Source of the DNA: a virus
Taxonomy: Duplodnaviria > Heunggongvirae > Uroviricota > Caudoviricetes
Strand: one strand, 5' to 3'
DNA: 48,409 nucleotides
Virus record (IMG/VR): IMGVR_UViG_646564533_000016
The notes under the pieces are model-generated. The model made no database searches. It was not told where the DNA came from and saw only the letters and a list, made by a program, of their open reading frames with translations. Every line of letters starts with the position of its first letter. The first letter of the stretch is position 1. Position numbers and translations under genes: made by a program. Below are positions 4,701 to 47,109 of the stretch, piece by piece.

Positions 4701-5619
4701 GATCAATCATCCCATTGGGCATGTCACGCAATCACTGATCACCCTATGGTTCAAACAGAACCCGAATGACAATGATTTGCTTCCTGTTGAATTGAAAACA
4801 CTTTTCACCAAATTGTGTAATGTACAGATAGAGCTATTCCGCCATGGTCGGGTGTTGCTGGGGTCGCGGCTGATCGCATTTTTTCGCGTAGATCGACCTT
4901 GGACCGAACAGTATCTATTGCCCTTGTTTGCTTGGAGTAATCCCGTCGAAGCAAAAGCTGTGTGGGAAGGCTTCCTCTGGTCGCCACGCCTGTATGAACC
5001 GTTGCTGATAGCTTTCAAGTCAGATTTTTTGGAGAGCGCCAATCACTATTCTGATCTTGGCGAGCACCGGCAGCAATTCGCTACTTTCCTGACTTATGCA
5101 GCTCTGGGCCCTACCGAGGGATATACCGTGGAGGAGTTCCGAACGGCAATTAGTGCTCTTCCACAAGAAGGTCTGGAGGTAGCCGCGCAGGCGTTATACC
5201 AGGCACTTGAAGGTGCGGGCGATCAGCGCGAGGAGTATTGGAAAAATCGTGTCCAGCCATTTTGGCAACAGGTTTGGCCAAAGTCCCGCAACTTGGCCAC
5301 CCCACGCATATCCGAATCGTTGACTCGTATGGTGATTGCTGCCCGAGGTGAATTTCCGGCGGCTTTGGCAGTGGTGCAGGACTGGCTGCAACCGCTCGAA
5401 CACCTTAGCTACGACGTTCGCCTTTTGCTAAAATCAGATATTTGCAGCCGATATCCTGCGGACGCTCTATCCCTGCTGAATGCCGTGATTGCCGAACAAC
5501 ACTGGGGGCCTCGAGAGTTGGGGCAATGCTTGCTTCAAATTGTTCAAGCTGCTCCACAACTGGAGCAAGATGTTCGTTATCAGCGATTAAATGAATATTC
5601 TCGAAGGCGCAGCGTGTGA
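1792..5619 (+). CDS. Large SIR2-domain protein (SIR2_2-type N-terminal NADase domain plus ~950-aa helical W/L-rich C-terminal region); candidate defence-associated sirtuin (DSR-like) effector
   Basis: 1275 aa; strong RBS AGGAGG 8 nt before ATG; N-terminal motifs VVFFCGAGISYPAGLP, VTTNFDRL, VYLHG, VGYSINDP typical of the SIR2_2 family; no Walker A motif found; sits between int and xis. Confidence 0.85.
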   Translation: MQFITNGPDIPDELLQAHEEGRVVFFCGAGISYPAGLPGFKGLVELIYQRNGTTLSEIEREVFERGQFDGTLDLLERRLPGQRIAVRRALEKALKPKLRRRGAIDTQAALLRLARSREGALRLVTTNFDRLFHVAAKRTGQAFQAYVAPMLPIPKNSRWDGLVYLHGLLPEKADDTALNRLVVTSGDFGLAYLTERWAARFVSELFRNYVVCFVGYSINDPVLRYMMDALAADRRLGEVTPQVWALGECEPGQEHRKAIEWEAKGVTPILYTVPAGSTDHSVLHQTLHAWADTYRDGIQGKEAIVVKHALARPQDSTRQDDFVGRMLWALSDKSGLPAKRFAELNPAPPLDWLLKAFSDERFKYSDLPRFCVSPHVEIDPKLRFSLVQRPAPYELAPQMSLVSGCVSASKWDDVMSHIARWLVRYLGDPRLIIWIAERGGQIHDRWMFLIESELDRLAALMRERKTSELDEILLHSPLAIPGPPMSTLWRLLLSGRVKSPLQNLDLYRWQNRLKNEGLTTTLRLELRELLSPKVMLRRPFRYSEDDSSSTDEPLRIKQLVDWELVLTADYVRSTLFDLADESWKSSLPYLLEDFQQLLRDALDLLRELGESDDRHDRSHWDLPSIAPHWQNRGFRDWVSLIELLRDSWLAVRAKDSDQATRIAQNWFELPYPTFKRLALFAASQDNCIPPERWVNWLLEDGSWWLWATDTGREVFRLFVLQGRHLTGIAQERLETAILAGPPREMYEDNLEADRWHYLVAHSVWLCLAKLRGAGLVLGESAATRLTEISTAYPKWQLATNERDEFSHWMSGTGDPGFEESIDVDIAPRKWQELVQWLAKPMPERLPFYEDTWSDVCRTRFFHSLYALRKLSQDDVWPVGRWREALQTWAEPGMILRSWRYAAPLVLDMPDAVLQEISLAVTWWMEEASKTILCHEEILLALCRRVLMIETSPESSTIRNGIETYDPVSTAINHPIGHVTQSLITLWFKQNPNDNDLLPVELKTLFTKLCNVQIELFRHGRVLLGSRLIAFFRVDRPWTEQYLLPLFAWSNPVEAKAVWEGFLWSPRLYEPLLIAFKSDFLESANHYSDLGEHRQQFATFLTYAALGPTEGYTVEEFRTAISALPQEGLEVAAQALYQALEGAGDQREEYWKNRVQPFWQQVWPKSRNLATPRISESLTRMVIAARGEFPAALAVVQDWLQPLEHLSYDVRLLLKSDICSRYPADALSLLNAVIAEQHWGPRELGQCLLQIVQAAPQLEQDVRYQRLNEYSRRRSV

Positions 5620-17723: not shown

Positions 17724-18023
17724 AAAAATTCCTTAATACTGATAACTTGGCGCACTATACACACGTTCCTGAAGAAAGCTATAGTTTTTTGATGGGGTTG
17801 AAGATGGCTGGATGTCTAAAATAAACATTGCTTCATATGTTCAACTATGCGTTAATGATTGCGTCGGTTTGAAGAACAGACGATATACGAAGTAGTTTAC
17901 TAAAGCAGTTCTCATTTCAGGTGTTATTCACTTATTCCTTCTTTGAGTCTCTCCAATTAAGTACGAAGTCGTTTCTGTTATACAAGCCATTTATGCCGAA
18001 AGGCTCAAGTTAAGGAATGTAGA

Positions 18024-18239
18024 ATGTCAAATAAAATGACTGGTTTAGTAAAATGGTTTAACGCTGATAAAGGTTTTGGCTTTATTTCTCCTGTTGATGG
18101 TAGTAAAGATGTGTTTGTGCATTTTTCTGCGATTCAGAATGATAATTATCGAACCTTATTTGAAGGTCAAAAGGTTACCTTCTCTGTAGAGAGTGGTGCT
18201 AAAGGTCCTGCAGCAGCAAATGTCATAATTACTGATTAA
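18024..18239 (+). CDS. cspB: Cold-shock protein CspB-like
   Basis: 71 aa; [38 protein letters not shown]; divergent from the cspF-like gene. Confidence 0.9.
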
Positions 18240-18520
18240 AATTCATAGTTTGTCTGTATACGATAACGAAGAAGGCTGATGCCTGAGTGGAGATACAGAC
18301 AGAGTGGTGAATATTGGATCTCTTTAATAAAGAGTAAGGAGGTCCAATACATGAAACAATGGCCAGCATATTTGGCAATAACTTAATCAGGAAAAGTATG
18401 CTAACCATTGTGGTGAAGTGCAGGTTTGCTGCATGAATAGTTTTACAGCAGAAGCTAACTGCTGGCATAGCAAAACAAAGTGCGTAAGTGGATGACTCCC
18501 ACAAAAAGTACCACAATATT

Positions 18521-20921: not shown

Positions 20922-21286
20922 ATGTAGATTAACATTAAATCGGATTATTTTTAGCGCTGAATGTGAAATTTAAATAAAAAGGACTCTTCCATGAGTCAAA
21001 ATCCTTGAAATCTTAAGGGTAAGATAAAAGGTCATTAGACAGAATGACACGTTTTATTAATAAATAAAGCTATTGTTTCATTCGTGTGTTTTTCTTTACA
21101 AAAGTAATCCTTGCTATGGTTGGTTAATCATGCGTTAATGGTGTTCTGGTTTGTTACAAAATTATCTGAAGCAGTCATTGTTATAATTTTATTATTTGTA
21201 CCTCTTGAGATTTCCTTGTTGGTTTTTCTCTCTGATATTTTTTTCGGACCATTCTGCCCAAGGGCTCACTTCTTCAAAAGGTAATA

Positions 21287-21502
21287 ATGATGTCTAACAA
21301 AATGACTGGTTTAGTGAAATGGTTTAACCCTGAAAAAGGTTTTGGTTTCATCACGCCGAAAGATGGTAGCAAAGATGTGTTTGTCCATTTCTCAGCTATT
21401 CAGAGCAACGATTTCAAAACGTTAACTGAGAATCAGCAAGTCGAATTTGGTATTGAGAACGGACCTAAAGGCCCCGCGGCTGTTCATGTAGTGGCACTTT
21501 GA
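21287..21502 (+). CDS. cspI: Cold-shock protein CspI-like
   Basis: [49 protein letters not shown]. Confidence 0.9.
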
Positions 21503-21710
21503 GGTAGAAAATATTACAAACCATATTCACTTTAGATGCCCGTGTTGCCATGGTTCTCAGTATAGAACATCATCTTTTGATGTTTCTGACAGGAATCCTT
21601 TCGGGGCAAAATGTATCTTTTGTAAATCAATGATGATTACATTTGATAATATTTCACAATACTTAAATGTTAGCCGTCTGTCGTTAGATTTAAGAAAGTG
21701 AAAATGAAGG

Positions 21711-26324: not shown

Positions 26325-27913
26325 AACGAACGCCTGTCCTGATTGATGTGAACGGCGTTCCGCTTCGTGAGAGTCTCAGCTACAACGGGGGCGGTGCAGG
26401 ATTTGGCGGGCAAATGGCTGAGTGGTTGCCACCGGCGCAGAGTGCCGATGCGGCCCTGCTGCCCGCGTTGCGTCTGGGGAATGCCCGGGCAGATGATCTG
26501 GTGCGCAATAACGGAATAGCGGCTAATGCGGTGGCTCTGCATAAGGATCACATTGTCGGGCATATGTTTCTGATCAGCTACCGTCCGAACTGGCGCTGGC
26601 TGGGGATGCGGGAGACCGCAGCAAAAAGCTTTGTCGATGAGGTGGAGGCGGCCTGGTCGGAATACGCCGAAGGGATGTTTGGCGAGATCGACGTGGAAGG
26701 AAAACGCACGTTCACGGAATTTATCCGTGAAGGTGTGGGCGTTCATGCGTTTAACGGCGAAATCTTTGTGCAGCCGGTCTGGGATACGGAAACCACGCAG
26801 TTATTCCGTACGCGTTTTAAAGCCGTGAGTCCGAAACGGGTGGACACGCCTGGACACGGTATGGGGAACCGTTTTCTGCGGGCCGGTGTGGAGGTCGATC
26901 GATATGGCCGTGCCGTCGCGTACCATATCTGTGAGGATGATTTTCCGTTCTCTGGTAGTGGACGATGGGAACGGATCCCGCGTGAACTTCCCACCGGGCG
27001 TCCGGCCATGCTGCATATTTTCGAGCCGGTGGAGGACGGGCAGACCCGTGGGGCTAATCAGTTTTACAGCGTCATGGAACGGCTGAAGATGCTCGATTCC
27101 CTGCAGGCAACACAGCTTCAGTCGGCCATAGTGAAGGCGATGTATGCAGCGACGATTGAAAGTGAACTTGATACCGAAAAGGCCTTTGAATATATCGCCG
27201 GCGCGCCACAGGAGCAGAAGGATAATCCGCTTATTAATATTCTGGAGAAGTTTTCCAGCTGGTATGACACGAATAACGTGACACTGGGCGGTGTCAAAAT
27301 TCCGCACCTTTTCCCTGGTGATGATCTGAAACTACAGACTGCGCAGGATTCAGACAATGGATTTTCTGCGCTTGAACAGGCGCTGCTGCGGTATATCGCC
27401 GCCGGTCTTGGCGTTTCCTACGAACAGTTGTCCCGTGATTACTCGAAGGTCAGTTACTCAAGTGCCCGCGCCTCCGCCAATGAGTCGTGGCGCTATTTTA
27501 TGGGGCGGCGAAAATTTATTGCGGCCCGGCTGGCCACGCAGATGTTTTCCTGCTGGCTGGAAGAGGCACTTCTTCGGGGGATTATTCGTCCGCCACGGGC
27601 ACGTTTTGATTTTTATCAGGCGCGATCAGCCTGGTCACGGGCAGAGTGGATTGGTGCCGGAAGAATGGCCATTGACGGGCTCAAGGAAGTCCAGGAATCA
27701 GTGATGCGCATTGAGGCCGGACTGAGCACGTATGAGAAAGAGCTGGCGCTGATGGGCGAGGATTATCAGGACATTTTCCGCCAGCAGGTCAGGGAATCTG
27801 CTGAGCGGCAAAAAGCCGGACTCTCACGTCCGGTGTGGATAGCGCAGGCGTATCAGCAGCAGATAGCGGAGAGTCGTAGGCCGGAAGAGGAGACAACACC
27901 ACGTGAGACGTAA
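26321..27913 (+). CDS. B: Portal protein B
   Basis: ATG at 26321 in ATGA overlap with W; lambda gpB position and size. Confidence 0.9.
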   Translation: MKRTPVLIDVNGVPLRESLSYNGGGAGFGGQMAEWLPPAQSADAALLPALRLGNARADDLVRNNGIAANAVALHKDHIVGHMFLISYRPNWRWLGMRETAAKSFVDEVEAAWSEYAEGMFGEIDVEGKRTFTEFIREGVGVHAFNGEIFVQPVWDTETTQLFRTRFKAVSPKRVDTPGHGMGNRFLRAGVEVDRYGRAVAYHICEDDFPFSGSGRWERIPRELPTGRPAMLHIFEPVEDGQTRGANQFYSVMERLKMLDSLQATQLQSAIVKAMYAATIESELDTEKAFEYIAGAPQEQKDNPLINILEKFSSWYDTNNVTLGGVKIPHLFPGDDLKLQTAQDSDNGFSALEQALLRYIAAGLGVSYEQLSRDYSKVSYSSARASANESWRYFMGRRKFIAARLATQMFSCWLEEALLRGIIRPPRARFDFYQARSAWSRAEWIGAGRMAIDGLKEVQESVMRIEAGLSTYEKELALMGEDYQDIFRQQVRESAERQKAGLSRPVWIAQAYQQQIAESRRPEEETTPRET

Positions 27914-29408
27914 TCTTTCACACATTATTGCCGCAGCATTCAATGAACCGCTGCTTCTGGAGCCCGCCTATGCGCGGGTTTTCTTTTGCGCGCTCGGGCG
28001 CGAGATGGGGGCAGCAAGTCTTTCGGTACCACAACAGCAGGTACAGTTTGATGCTCTCGGAATGCTGGCTGAAACGGACGAGTACATGGCCGGAGGTAAA
28101 CGACCGGCCCGTGTTTACAGGGTGGTGAACGGTATTGCTGTACTGCCGGTGACCGGCACGCTGGTGCACCGGCTGGGTGGTATGCGGCCATTTTCCGGAA
28201 TGACAGGCTATGACGGTATTGTCTCCTGTCTTCAGCAGGCAATGGCGGATAGCCAGGTGCGGGGCGTACTGCTGGACATTGACAGTCCGGGCGGGCAGGC
28301 CGCCGGCGCGTTTGACTGCGCTGACATGATTTACCGCCTCCGTCAGCAGAAGCCGGTCTGGGCACTGTGCAATGACACGGCCTGTTCTGCAGCCATGCTG
28401 CTGGCGTCGGCCTGCTCCCGACGGCTGGTTACCCAGACATCCCGTATCGGTTCCATTGGCGTGATGATGAGCCATGTCAGCTATGCCGGTCATCTGGCGC
28501 AGGCCGGTGTGGATATCACGCTGATTTACTCAGGGGCGCACAAGGTGGATGGCAATCAGTTTGAAGCGTTGCCGGCAGAGGTTCGCCAGGACATGCAGCA
28601 GCGGATTGATGCGGCGCGCCGGATGTTTGCCGAAAAAGTGGCGATGTTTACCGGTCTGTCTGTTGATGCAGTCACGGGAACAGAGGCCGCTGTTTTTGAA
28701 GGTCAGTCCGGCATTGAGGCCGGGCTGGCGGATGAATTAATCAATGCGTCGGATGCCATCAGTGTGATGGCCACGGCGCTGAACAGTAATGTCAGAGGAG
28801 GCACTATGCCGCAATTAACTGCAACGGAAGCCGCCGCGCAGGAGAACCAGCGAGTGATGGGGATCCTGACATGCCAGGAAGCGAAAGGACGTGAACAGCT
28901 TGCCACGATGCTGGCAGGACAACAGGGCATGAGCGTTGAACAGGCCCGGGCGATTCTGGCCGCGGCGGCACCGCAGCAGCCGGTGGCATCCACGCAGAGT
29001 GAAGCCGATCGCATTATGGCGTGTGAAGAAGCGAACGGTCGTGAACAACTGGCGGCAACGCTGGCGGCGATGCCGGAGATGACGGTGGAAAAAGCCCGCC
29101 CGATCCTGGCTGCTTCACCGCAGGCGGATGCCGGACCATCACTCCGTGATCAGATCATGGCACTGGATGAGGCAAAAGGGGCTGAGGTGCAGGCTGAACA
29201 GCTGGCTGCCTGCCCGGGAATAACTGTGGAGTGCGCCCGGGCTGTGCTGGCTGCGGGATCAGGTAAGGCAGAACCGGTCTCTGCATCCACAACCGCCATG
29301 TTTGAACATTTCATGGCGAACCATTCACCGGCAGCGGTACAGGGTGGCGTGCCACAGACGTCAGCAGACGGTGATGCGGACGTGAAAATGCTCATGGCCA
29401 TGCCATGA
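27903..29408 (+). CDS. C: Head maturation protease/scaffold C (S49 ClpP-like peptidase) with repeat-expanded C-terminus
   Basis: GTG start; MRRNLSHIIAAAFNEPLLLEPAYARVFFCAL collinear with lambda gpC; IDSPGG motif; three ~45-aa C-terminal repeats. Confidence 0.9.
   Translation: MRRNLSHIIAAAFNEPLLLEPAYARVFFCALGREMGAASLSVPQQQVQFDALGMLAETDEYMAGGKRPARVYRVVNGIAVLPVTGTLVHRLGGMRPFSGMTGYDGIVSCLQQAMADSQVRGVLLDIDSPGGQAAGAFDCADMIYRLRQQKPVWALCNDTACSAAMLLASACSRRLVTQTSRIGSIGVMMSHVSYAGHLAQAGVDITLIYSGAHKVDGNQFEALPAEVRQDMQQRIDAARRMFAEKVAMFTGLSVDAVTGTEAAVFEGQSGIEAGLADELINASDAISVMATALNSNVRGGTMPQLTATEAAAQENQRVMGILTCQEAKGREQLATMLAGQQGMSVEQARAILAAAAPQQPVASTQSEADRIMACEEANGREQLAATLAAMPEMTVEKARPILAASPQADAGPSLRDQIMALDEAKGAEVQAEQLAACPGITVECARAVLAAGSGKAEPVSASTTAMFEHFMANHSPAAVQGGVPQTSADGDADVKMLMAMP
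28806..29408 (+). CDS. nu3: Nested in-frame scaffold gene (Nu3-like), internal start within C
   Basis: In-frame ATG at 28806 preceded by SD AGAGGAGG; by analogy to lambda C/Nu3. Confidence 0.55.
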   Translation: MPQLTATEAAAQENQRVMGILTCQEAKGREQLATMLAGQQGMSVEQARAILAAAAPQQPVASTQSEADRIMACEEANGREQLAATLAAMPEMTVEKARPILAASPQADAGPSLRDQIMALDEAKGAEVQAEQLAACPGITVECARAVLAAGSGKAEPVSASTTAMFEHFMANHSPAAVQGGVPQTSADGDADVKMLMAMP

Positions 29409-29444: not shown

Positions 29445-29792
29445 ATGGTGACGAAAACCATCACTGAACAGCGTGCGGAAGTACGTATTTTTGCCGGTAA
29501 TGATCCGGCTCATACCGCCACAGGCAGCAGCGGGATTTCTTCTGCAACACCGGCTCTGACGCCCCTGATGCTGGATGAAGCCACCGGGAAACTGGTGGTC
29601 TGGGACGGACAGAAAGCCGGTAGTGCGGTTGGCATACTGGTACTGCCGCTTGAAGGCACAGAGACGGCGCTGACGTATTACAAGTCGGGAACCTTTGCGA
29701 CGGAGGCAATCCACTGGCCTGAAAGTGTGGATGAACACAAAAAGGCCAACGCCTTTGCTGGCAGTGCCCTGAGTCACGCGGCGCTGCCGTAA
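29445..29792 (+). CDS. D: Head decoration protein D
   Basis: NDPAHTATGSSG...TPLMLD...GILVLPLEG...YYKSGTF collinear with lambda gpD; SD AGGAGG. Confidence 0.93.
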   Translation: MVTKTITEQRAEVRIFAGNDPAHTATGSSGISSATPALTPLMLDEATGKLVVWDGQKAGSAVGILVLPLEGTETALTYYKSGTFATEAIHWPESVDEHKKANAFAGSALSHAALP

Positions 29793-29849
29793 CACGTTAT
29801 CAGGCCACCGCGGTGGCCTGACTGATTTCTGAATGAAAGGAACTGATTT

Positions 29850-30878
29850 ATGGGATTGTTTACGACCCGCCAGTTACTCGGTTATACCGAACAAAAAGTT
29901 AAATTTCGTGCGCTGTTTCTGGAACTGTTTTTCCGCCGTACGGTGAATTTCCATACCGAAGAGGTGATGCTGGACAAAATTACCGGAAAAACGCCGGTGG
30001 CGGCCTATGTCTCCCCGGTTGTTGAAGGAAAAGTGCTGCGTCATCGTGGTGGTGAAACCCGCGTGTTGCGTCCGGGCTACGTCAAGCCGAAACACGAATT
30101 TAATTACCAGCAGGCGGTTGAGCGCCTTCCTGGTGAAGATCCATCTCAACTGAATGATCCGGCTTACCGCCGTCTGCGTATCATTACCGATAACCTCAAA
30201 CAGGAAGAGCACGCGATTGTCCAGGTGGAAGAAATGCAGGCGGTAAATGCTGTGTTGTATGGCAAATACACCATGGAAGGAGACCAGTTCGAGAAAATTG
30301 AGGTCGATTTTGGCAGGTCGACGAAGAATAACATCACTCAGGGTAGTGGTAAGGAGTGGTCAAAACAGGATCGTGACACGTTCGATCCTACACATGATAT
30401 TGACCTCTACTGCGACCAGGCCAGCGGTCTTGTGAATATTGCCATTATGGACGGTACCGTCTGGCGTCTTCTGAATGGTTTTAAGCTGTTCCGCGAAAAA
30501 CTGGATACCCGTCGCGGTTCAAATTCTCAACTCGAAACGGCAGTGAAAGATCTGGGCGCAGTGGTGTCCTTCAAGGGGTATTACGGCGATCTGGCCATTG
30601 TGGTGGCGAAAACGTCTTATATAGCAGAAGACGGTATCGAAAAACGTTATCTTCCAGATGGCATGCTGGTTCTGGGGAATACTGCTGCAGATGGGATCCG
30701 TTGTTACGGTGCCATTCAGGATGCTCAGGCGTTGTCCGAAGGTGTGGTGGCCTCTTCCCGTTATCCGAAACACTGGCTGACGGTAGGGGATCCCGCCCGT
30801 GAATTTACCATGACGCAGTCCGCGCCGCTGATGGTGTTGCCGGACCCGGATGAGTTTGTGGTGGTACAGGTGAAATAA
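29850..30878 (+). CDS. E: Major capsid protein E
   Basis: 342 aa collinear with lambda gpE (YVSPVVEGKV...PGYVKPKHE...TQSAPLMVLPDPDEFV). Confidence 0.95.
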   Translation: MGLFTTRQLLGYTEQKVKFRALFLELFFRRTVNFHTEEVMLDKITGKTPVAAYVSPVVEGKVLRHRGGETRVLRPGYVKPKHEFNYQQAVERLPGEDPSQLNDPAYRRLRIITDNLKQEEHAIVQVEEMQAVNAVLYGKYTMEGDQFEKIEVDFGRSTKNNITQGSGKEWSKQDRDTFDPTHDIDLYCDQASGLVNIAIMDGTVWRLLNGFKLFREKLDTRRGSNSQLETAVKDLGAVVSFKGYYGDLAIVVAKTSYIAEDGIEKRYLPDGMLVLGNTAADGIRCYGAIQDAQALSEGVVASSRYPKHWLTVGDPAREFTMTQSAPLMVLPDPDEFVVVQVK

Positions 30879-46534: not shown

Positions 46535-47109
46535 TGGCATTCAGAATGAGTGAACAAGCACGGACCATAAAAATTTATAATCTGCTGGCCGGAACTAATG
46601 AATTTATTGGTGAAGGTGACGCATATATTCCGCCTCATACAGGTCTGCCAGCAAACAGTACCGATATTGCACCGCCAGATATTCCGGCTGGCTTCGTGGC
46701 TGTTTTCAACAGTGATGAGTCATCGTGGCATCTCGTTGAAGATCATCGGGGTAAAACGGTTTATGACGTGGCTTCCGGCGATGCGTTATTTATTTCTGAA
46801 CTCGGTCCGTTACCGGAAAATGTTACCTGGTTATCGCCGGAAGGGGAGTTTCAGAAGTGGAACGGCACAGCCTGGGTGAAGGATACGGAAGCAGAAAAAC
46901 TGTTCCGGATCCGGGAGGCGGAAGAAACAAAAAACAACCTGATGCAGGTAGCCAGTGAGCATATTGCGCCGCTTCAGGATGCTGCAGATCTGGAAATTGC
47001 AACGGAGGAAGAAATCTCGTTGCTGGAAGCATGGAAAAAGTATCGGGTATTGCTGAACCGTGTTGATACGTCAACTGCACAGGATATTGAATGGCCAGCA
47101 CTGCCGTAG
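46534..47109 (+). CDS. tfa: Tail fibre assembly protein Tfa
   Basis: 191 aa; TAATG overlap with stf; lambda tfa position. Confidence 0.9.

Follow-up and report, generated by a model that had tools for sequence, protein, structure and literature searches.

A phage 21-type protease/scaffold gene with three tandem C-terminal modules and a conserved nested start in a lambdoid prophage

The protease/scaffold locus

The DNA studied here is a stretch of 48,409 nucleotides from a virus (IMG/VR record IMGVR_UViG_646564533_000016), which is called the window in what follows and which is a lambdoid prophage in prophage order, its left half beginning with the integrase. The prophage is a mosaic: positions 1-25000, with the early and immunity genes, are closest to PhiR63_1, 2H10 and Stx2c-type phages (about 96% identity, 59-65% coverage), and positions 25001-48409, with the head and tail genes, are of the phage 21 type (96% identity, about 75% coverage). 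Among the phage collection no record covered at least 80% of either half. The head genes follow the order portal, protease/scaffold, decoration and major capsid, common to phage 21, lambda, Gifsy-1 and N15, and the major capsid protein has 342 aa in the window compared to 341 aa in lambda. The head of phage 21 is lambda-like. The features of the region are given below, with the names of the boxes taken from the phage 21 record.

26291/26321-27913: portal gene (list of open reading frames)
27903-29408, + strand: prohead protease/scaffold fusion gene, homologue of lambda gpC and phage 21 gp5, 501 aa, GTG start (list of open reading frames)
28338-28781, + strand: S49 (SppA-like) serine peptidase domain, aa 146-293 (Pfam PF01343)
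28794-28801, + strand: internal Shine-Dalgarno sequence AGAGGAGG, with the core AGGAGG at 28796-28801 (sequence)
28806-29408, + strand: predicted nested in-frame gene for the free scaffold, homologue of phage 21 gp6 and lambda Nu3 (same start as gene 6 of M81255)
28842-28976, + strand: module copy 1 (Tri1 box), aa 314-358 (profile match, i-E 9e-25)
29001-29123, + strand: module copy 2 (Tri box), aa 367-407 (profile match, i-E 7e-27)
29142-29264, + strand: module copy 3 (Tri3 box), aa 414-454 (profile match, i-E 3e-25)
29265-29405, + strand: C-terminal tail, aa 455-501 (side-by-side tail comparison)
29445-29792: shp/D decoration gene (list of open reading frames)
29850-30878: E-type major capsid gene (list of open reading frames)

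The GTG-started protease gene overlaps the end of the portal gene (27913) by 11 nt. Its product matched the Pfam family Peptidase_S49 (PF01343) at aa 146-293 with an E of 1.5e-34, and a sequence search of the PDB returned the SppA structures 3rst and 4kwb at E 3e-16. Ser162 of the window protease aligns with the SppA nucleophile and with lambda Ser166; the alignment with SppA resolved this nucleophile serine and not the general base. Judged by these matches, the 501-aa frame encodes a prohead protease of family S49, like gpC of lambda. The scaffold part of the protein was matched by PHROGs 8399 and 8940 (head scaffolding / capsid assembly) at E 6e-34 and 1e-29, in three stretches each, and its modules align with that of lambda; it is homologous to lambda Nu3. 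The tail contains two short conserved motifs, a F/L-x-x-F/L-M helix and a terminal LLMxMP-like end, both in common with the tail of lambda.

Open reading frames on the minus strand across the region (e.g. 28703-29014 and 29150-29401) were dismissed as by-products of the GC-rich coding frame, and the related records hold no annotated feature on this strand of the region except two pattern-only CII-site matches in OL657228.

Three copies of a C-terminal module

An earlier note, made from the letters of this DNA, had described three diverged repeats at the C terminus of the protease homologue, where lambda C was said to have one. The repeat peptides of that note map to aa 317-358, 370-407 and 417-454, corresponding to nucleotides 28851-28976, 29010-29123 and 29151-29264. 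Both parts of the description were borne out. The pairwise BLOSUM62 local scores of the copies were 75-101, compared to 22-24 +/- 4-5 for shuffled sequences (z 10.8-18.0), and 0 of 2000 composition-preserving shuffles matched the observed scores. A profile built from the copies matched the window protein at exactly three places and lambda C at a single one (aa 357-400).

The module is about 41 aa long, with all three copies within the C-terminal 200 aa, and has the consensus R-IM-a-x-EAKGRE-LA--LA--PGMTVEqAr-iLAAaP. Fifteen alignment columns are invariant across the three copies of the window, and the invariant positions kept in each copy read EAxG-E..A..LA...V/T.E.A+..LAA. In Pfam the module has no family, the only matches being to the N-terminal S49 domain. 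Copy 1 retains the 'MGI' insertion that is found in the single copy of lambda, to which it is identical at 26 of 42 positions, and copies 2 and 3 sit between copy 1 and the lambda-homologous tail. From this alignment, copy 1 is the orthologue of the single lambda module.

At the level of DNA the copies are only 53-65% identical, and DNA repeat finders are blind to the module because of this; Tandem Repeats Finder and a direct-repeat search gave only short, chance-like matches. The comparison of the protein and DNA sequences indicates that the triplication is old, at the protein level, and is not a recent DNA repeat. That the copies resemble each other by chance or low complexity, in a region with 22% Ala where the DNA-level finders reported nothing convincing, has next to no probability and is refuted by the shuffles, which never reached the observed scores with the composition preserved, by the profile matches, with i-E down to 1e-27, and by an exhaustive profile search, which found the module in 394 representative proteins at E <= 0.001.

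A conserved nested start and the predicted free scaffold

The AGGAGG core ends 4 nt before an in-frame ATG at 28806, which is Met302 of the 501-aa protease. The frame from this ATG to the stop at 29406-29408 would give an acidic protein of 200 aa (20.6 kDa, pI 4.6, 22% Ala), and the two proteins would be C-terminally identical. A strong ribosome binding site ahead of an in-frame ATG at 28806 had been proposed before and lies at exactly these coordinates, where it aligns with a start that is conserved in lambda. When seven C homologues were aligned, (A)GGAGG-N4-ATG stood in one column in lambda (AGGAGG-N4-ATG, Met309), phage 21 and the window, Gifsy-1, N15 and phi80, and a weaker signal, AGGA or AGGAG, is present in an Aeromonas phage and in an E. 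coli prophage with four modules. We infer translation from 28806, and an in-frame internal start with its own Shine-Dalgarno sequence predicts a scaffold with the same C terminus as the protease.

It could be argued that only the full-length 501-aa protein is made, that AGGAGG is a by-product of two glycine codons, and that the scaffold function comes from the protease fusion or from its self-cleavage products. M81255 and OL657228, the phage 21 records, annotate the ribosome binding site just upstream of gene 6 as 'putative', and Gly-Gly-x-Met is conserved at the protein level, so that the constraint on the Gly-Gly ahead of the Met could in part account for the conservation of the Shine-Dalgarno sequence. 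However, the first codon of this Gly-Gly is GGA in five of the five lineages compared (lambda, 21, Gifsy-1, N15 and phi80), a sign that the nucleotide signal itself is under selection in addition to the protein, and the 4-nt spacing is kept in the same five; GGA is a minor glycine codon in E. coli. Also against a single product, Nu3 of lambda, which overlaps C, is established as the product of a gene of its own (Shaw & Murialdo 1980 and Ray & Murialdo 1975, cited in PMC8508860 and PMC3224144), and it was found to be essential by CRISPRi (PMC10695390). A stoichiometric scaffold, moreover, needs many more copies than a protease. We therefore consider it very unlikely that the full-length protein is the only product.

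Relation to phage 21

Over all of its 1506 nt the gene shares 99.0% identity with gene 5 of phage 21 (M81255; OL657228), and it is 99.8% identical to its counterparts in phages 4C10, 4A7, 1W and 3W. Between its product and phage 21 gp5 there are 8 differences in 501 aa, all of them point substitutions (e.g. A373V, V429A, I440M and C444S); the difference from phage 21 lies in the rest of the prophage, with its mosaic early region. The original description is reportedly that of Smith and Feiss (Gene, 1993). In M81255, which holds the head gene operon, there is a nested CDS, 'gene 6, head-tail preconnector gp6', of which the start at 2404 corresponds to 28806 of the window. A nested scaffold gene of the lambda C/Nu3 kind, as the earlier note had suggested, is thus found at the level of the sequence and had been annotated already.

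The same record carries three repeat regions, 'Tri1 box', 'Tri box' and 'Tri3 box', labelled 'function unknown; putative', which correspond to 28873-28976, 29013-29123 and 29154-29267 of the window. By this correspondence, in which the modules end where the boxes do, the array of the window belongs to the phage 21 'Tri box' subtype, with three tandem modules between the nested start and the tail. The complete genome of phage 21, reported in 2022 (PMC9119081), has a 'capsid protease/scaffolding protein' and a 'scaffolding protein' (OL657228, CPT_21_05/06). Since the nested gene and the triplication are both in the GenBank record of phage 21, their detection in the window is a correct rediscovery of what was already known; the prophage carries essentially the gene of phage 21, and we give the finding little weight as a discovery. 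New in this work are the survey of copy number, the analysis of selection, the structure model and the comparison of the lambda Nu3 starts.

Comparison with lambda and the Nu3 start

Lambda has the same domain order and the same gene neighbourhood as the window, with one module followed by a homologous C-terminal tail. It differs in a leader of about 36 aa between the nested start and the module, which is absent from the window protein, and the product from the conserved start has 131 aa (13,394 Da) in lambda compared to 200 aa (20.6 kDa) in the window. In the GenBank record of lambda (J02459) nu3 begins at nt 5132, at Met239 of C, and encodes 201 aa. This is not the start in the conserved column, which in lambda is Met309, at nt 5342-5343. 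Met239 has no good Shine-Dalgarno sequence. Of the seven relatives compared, five have Ile or Val at its position, and only Gifsy-1 has the Met of lambda. Purified gpNu3 is reported to be 13.4 kDa, in agreement with the product from Met309. The record of phage 434 carries a note beginning 'real Nu3 start ...', and the 201-aa version of Nu3 has been propagated by many records and by PHROG 8940.

The suggestion that the scaffold is expanded depends on which of the two starts is taken. It holds when the window product is compared with the lambda product from Met309 (200 aa versus 131 aa, 69 residues more), and it fails in comparison with Nu3 as given in GenBank (200 aa versus 201 aa). The further idea of the earlier note, that an expanded scaffold could alter capsid assembly, is conjectural.

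Copy number among relatives

For copy number we relied on phage and E. coli genome records that are complete, together with the exhaustive profile search, because a word-indexed homologue search returned mostly fragments from the ends of contigs. Among the best 150 of the 394 representative proteins there were 53 of full length (at least 380 aa), of which 52 had one copy of the module and one had three. The profile search also contained 73 small proteins (median 134 aa, with the module from about residue 43) that resemble the lambda product from Met309. One profile match each was obtained for lambda, N15, phi80 and Aeromonas phiARM81ld, and three for Gifsy-1. Similarly, when the 200-aa scaffold was compared with the phage records, only the phage 21 group and Gifsy-1 matched over the full length, and lambda, 434, N15, phi80, HK225 and many others matched through one copy only.

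The gpC homologue of Gifsy-1 from Salmonella (STM2605) has 498 aa, with the three modules in the same order and with the same nested start; the identity over the scaffold part is 53.5%, and the linkers and the tail have diverged. The shared order of the three modules indicates that these lineages had not yet split when the triplication arose.

A form with four copies is present in E. coli O8:H28 BMH-17-0027 (NZ_CP076704) and is found gap-free in complete E. coli chromosomes. It consists of a protease of 538 aa and a nested product of 236 aa, the nested ATG being at aa 303 behind AGGAG, and its modules are near-identical in protein and only 67-78% identical in DNA. Of 5426 complete E. coli genomes, 105 contained a match to the four-copy gene that covered at least 80% of the query; in 9 records the identity was at least 99%. 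In one natural protein with two copies the first module corresponds to copy 1 up to VEQAR and to copy 2 afterwards, a hybrid that fits in-register unequal recombination between modules; other two-copy forms are without copy 2. These two-copy or partly deleted derivatives come from E. coli and metagenome contigs, which are mostly short and may include assembly artefacts. As far as the sequences compared tell, one copy is the rule, and forms with two, three or four copies are restricted to a single clade of enterobacterial prophages.

Selection and predicted structure

Across the three modules the comparison with Gifsy-1 gave pN values of 0.14-0.28 and pS values of 0.64-0.75, with the synonymous sites near saturation. 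Copy 2 had a dN/dS of 0.10 and copy 3 one of 0.25, similar to the protease domain (0.14) and below the tail (0.40). Copy 1 had the lowest pN (0.14), and as its synonymous sites are saturated (pS 0.75) no dN/dS ratio is given for it. The substitution pattern indicates that all three copies are under purifying selection, copy 1 being judged by its pN. The four-copy gene, with modules that differ far more in DNA than in protein, points the same way. The linkers and the leader are poorly conserved.

A model of the scaffold was made with AlphaFold2 from an alignment of 19 sequences and was of moderate quality (mean pLDDT 68.6, pTM 0.28). Each module was modelled as a small three-helix unit (block pLDDT about 77-82), and the linkers had values of 44-67. 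Two short helices were placed in the tail, at scaffold residues 160-173 and 191-196, with low confidence. According to this model the modules would be three small helical units on flexible linkers. A sequence search of the PDB with the scaffold part of the window phage and of lambda gave no match even at E 1-10, and a Foldseek search of the model against the PDB gave nothing usable (best E 2.3); small helical units such as a single 41-aa module give unreliable fold matches.

The C-terminal helix-turn-helix of P22 gp8 and the C-terminal targeting element of the HK97 protease offer an analogy, as both are helical elements that dock to the interior of the coat and are removed before DNA packaging. 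In these systems the element is not used as a tandem array, and we found no sequence relationship or detectable fold relationship of either protein to the module.

Proposed role of the module

We have observed the anatomy of the locus, its homologies, the numbers of copies, the selection acting on them and how the start signal is conserved; from these we consider it probable that the locus is a phage 21-type version of the lambda C/Nu3 gene pair, in which the module serves as an interaction unit of the scaffold and the three copies make multivalent chains. In lambda, Nu3 is the scaffold; it associates with itself and has C, B and E as interaction partners. The proheads contain scaffold and protease, which are proteolytically removed before packaging, and the step of assembly at which scaffold and protease engage the shell has been described as ill-defined (PMC3224144). 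The binding partners and the effect of valency that we propose for the module are conjectural. One frame would yield two C-terminally identical proteins, the protease (gp5/C) from the GTG at 27903 and the scaffold (gp6/Nu3) from the ATG at 28806. The module may mediate self-association of the scaffold, or its docking to the portal and to the inward-facing side of the major capsid protein, or both. Through these modules, which it has in common with the scaffold, the protease would be co-assembled into the scaffold core, and after assembly of the shell it would digest the scaffold and itself. In-register unequal recombination in an ancestor of phage 21 and Gifsy-1 would have placed the extra copies after the original module and before the tail. 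With three modules each chain would be multivalent; since lambda works with one, such multivalency is not required for a capsid of the lambda type.

The main rival to an interaction unit is that the extra modules act mainly as a spacer, replacing the unstructured leader of about 36 aa in lambda and adjusting the length of the tether or the volume of the core. The window protein indeed is without the 36 residues that precede the lambda module, and its linkers and leader combine poor conservation with low confidence in the model. The natural variants with two and four copies keep this explanation alive, as the copy number drifts between one and four among related prophages and in-register deletions seem to be tolerated in nature. 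However, the same invariant positions recur in every copy, and non-synonymous change is low in the modules (pN 0.14-0.28; dN/dS 0.10 and 0.25 for copies 2 and 3), like in the protease domain. As the sequence is conserved in every copy, a pure spacer is argued against, and we regard it as unlikely.

Returning to the module as an interaction unit, it is conceivable, and we put this forward tentatively as a less than even prospect, that the copy number is a tunable valency, which sets the affinity of the scaffold for the capsid or the specificity for the cognate partner and which is adjusted by in-register unequal recombination. If this is true, phage 21, lambda and the four-copy form would be a natural allelic series for the number of coat-binding units per scaffold chain. 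The module itself is a widespread, un-named domain that is normally present in a single copy, and the set of lambda, phage 21 and the four-copy form is convenient for dissecting how the scaffold and the tethered protease engage the capsid shell.

Other features of the window

Outside the protease/scaffold gene, full-length matches to the Rfam cspA thermoregulator were obtained at 17863-18302 and 21133-21529 (+ strand; 157 and 114 bits), implying two candidate cold-shock-protein genes with thermosensors in the 5' UTR on the late-regulatory and lysis side of the prophage. Additionally, a full-length Rfam match to IS009 (221 bits) lies at 46877-47075 (+ strand), past the tail genes and near the right end of the window. 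Between the decoration and major capsid genes, at 29800-29821 (+ strand), a T-rich run comes directly after a GC-rich stem-loop of 9 bp. The records of phage 434 and N15 show a rho-independent terminator or stem-loop at the equivalent place, and the stem-loop of the window may be an attenuator for the ratio of decoration to capsid expression.
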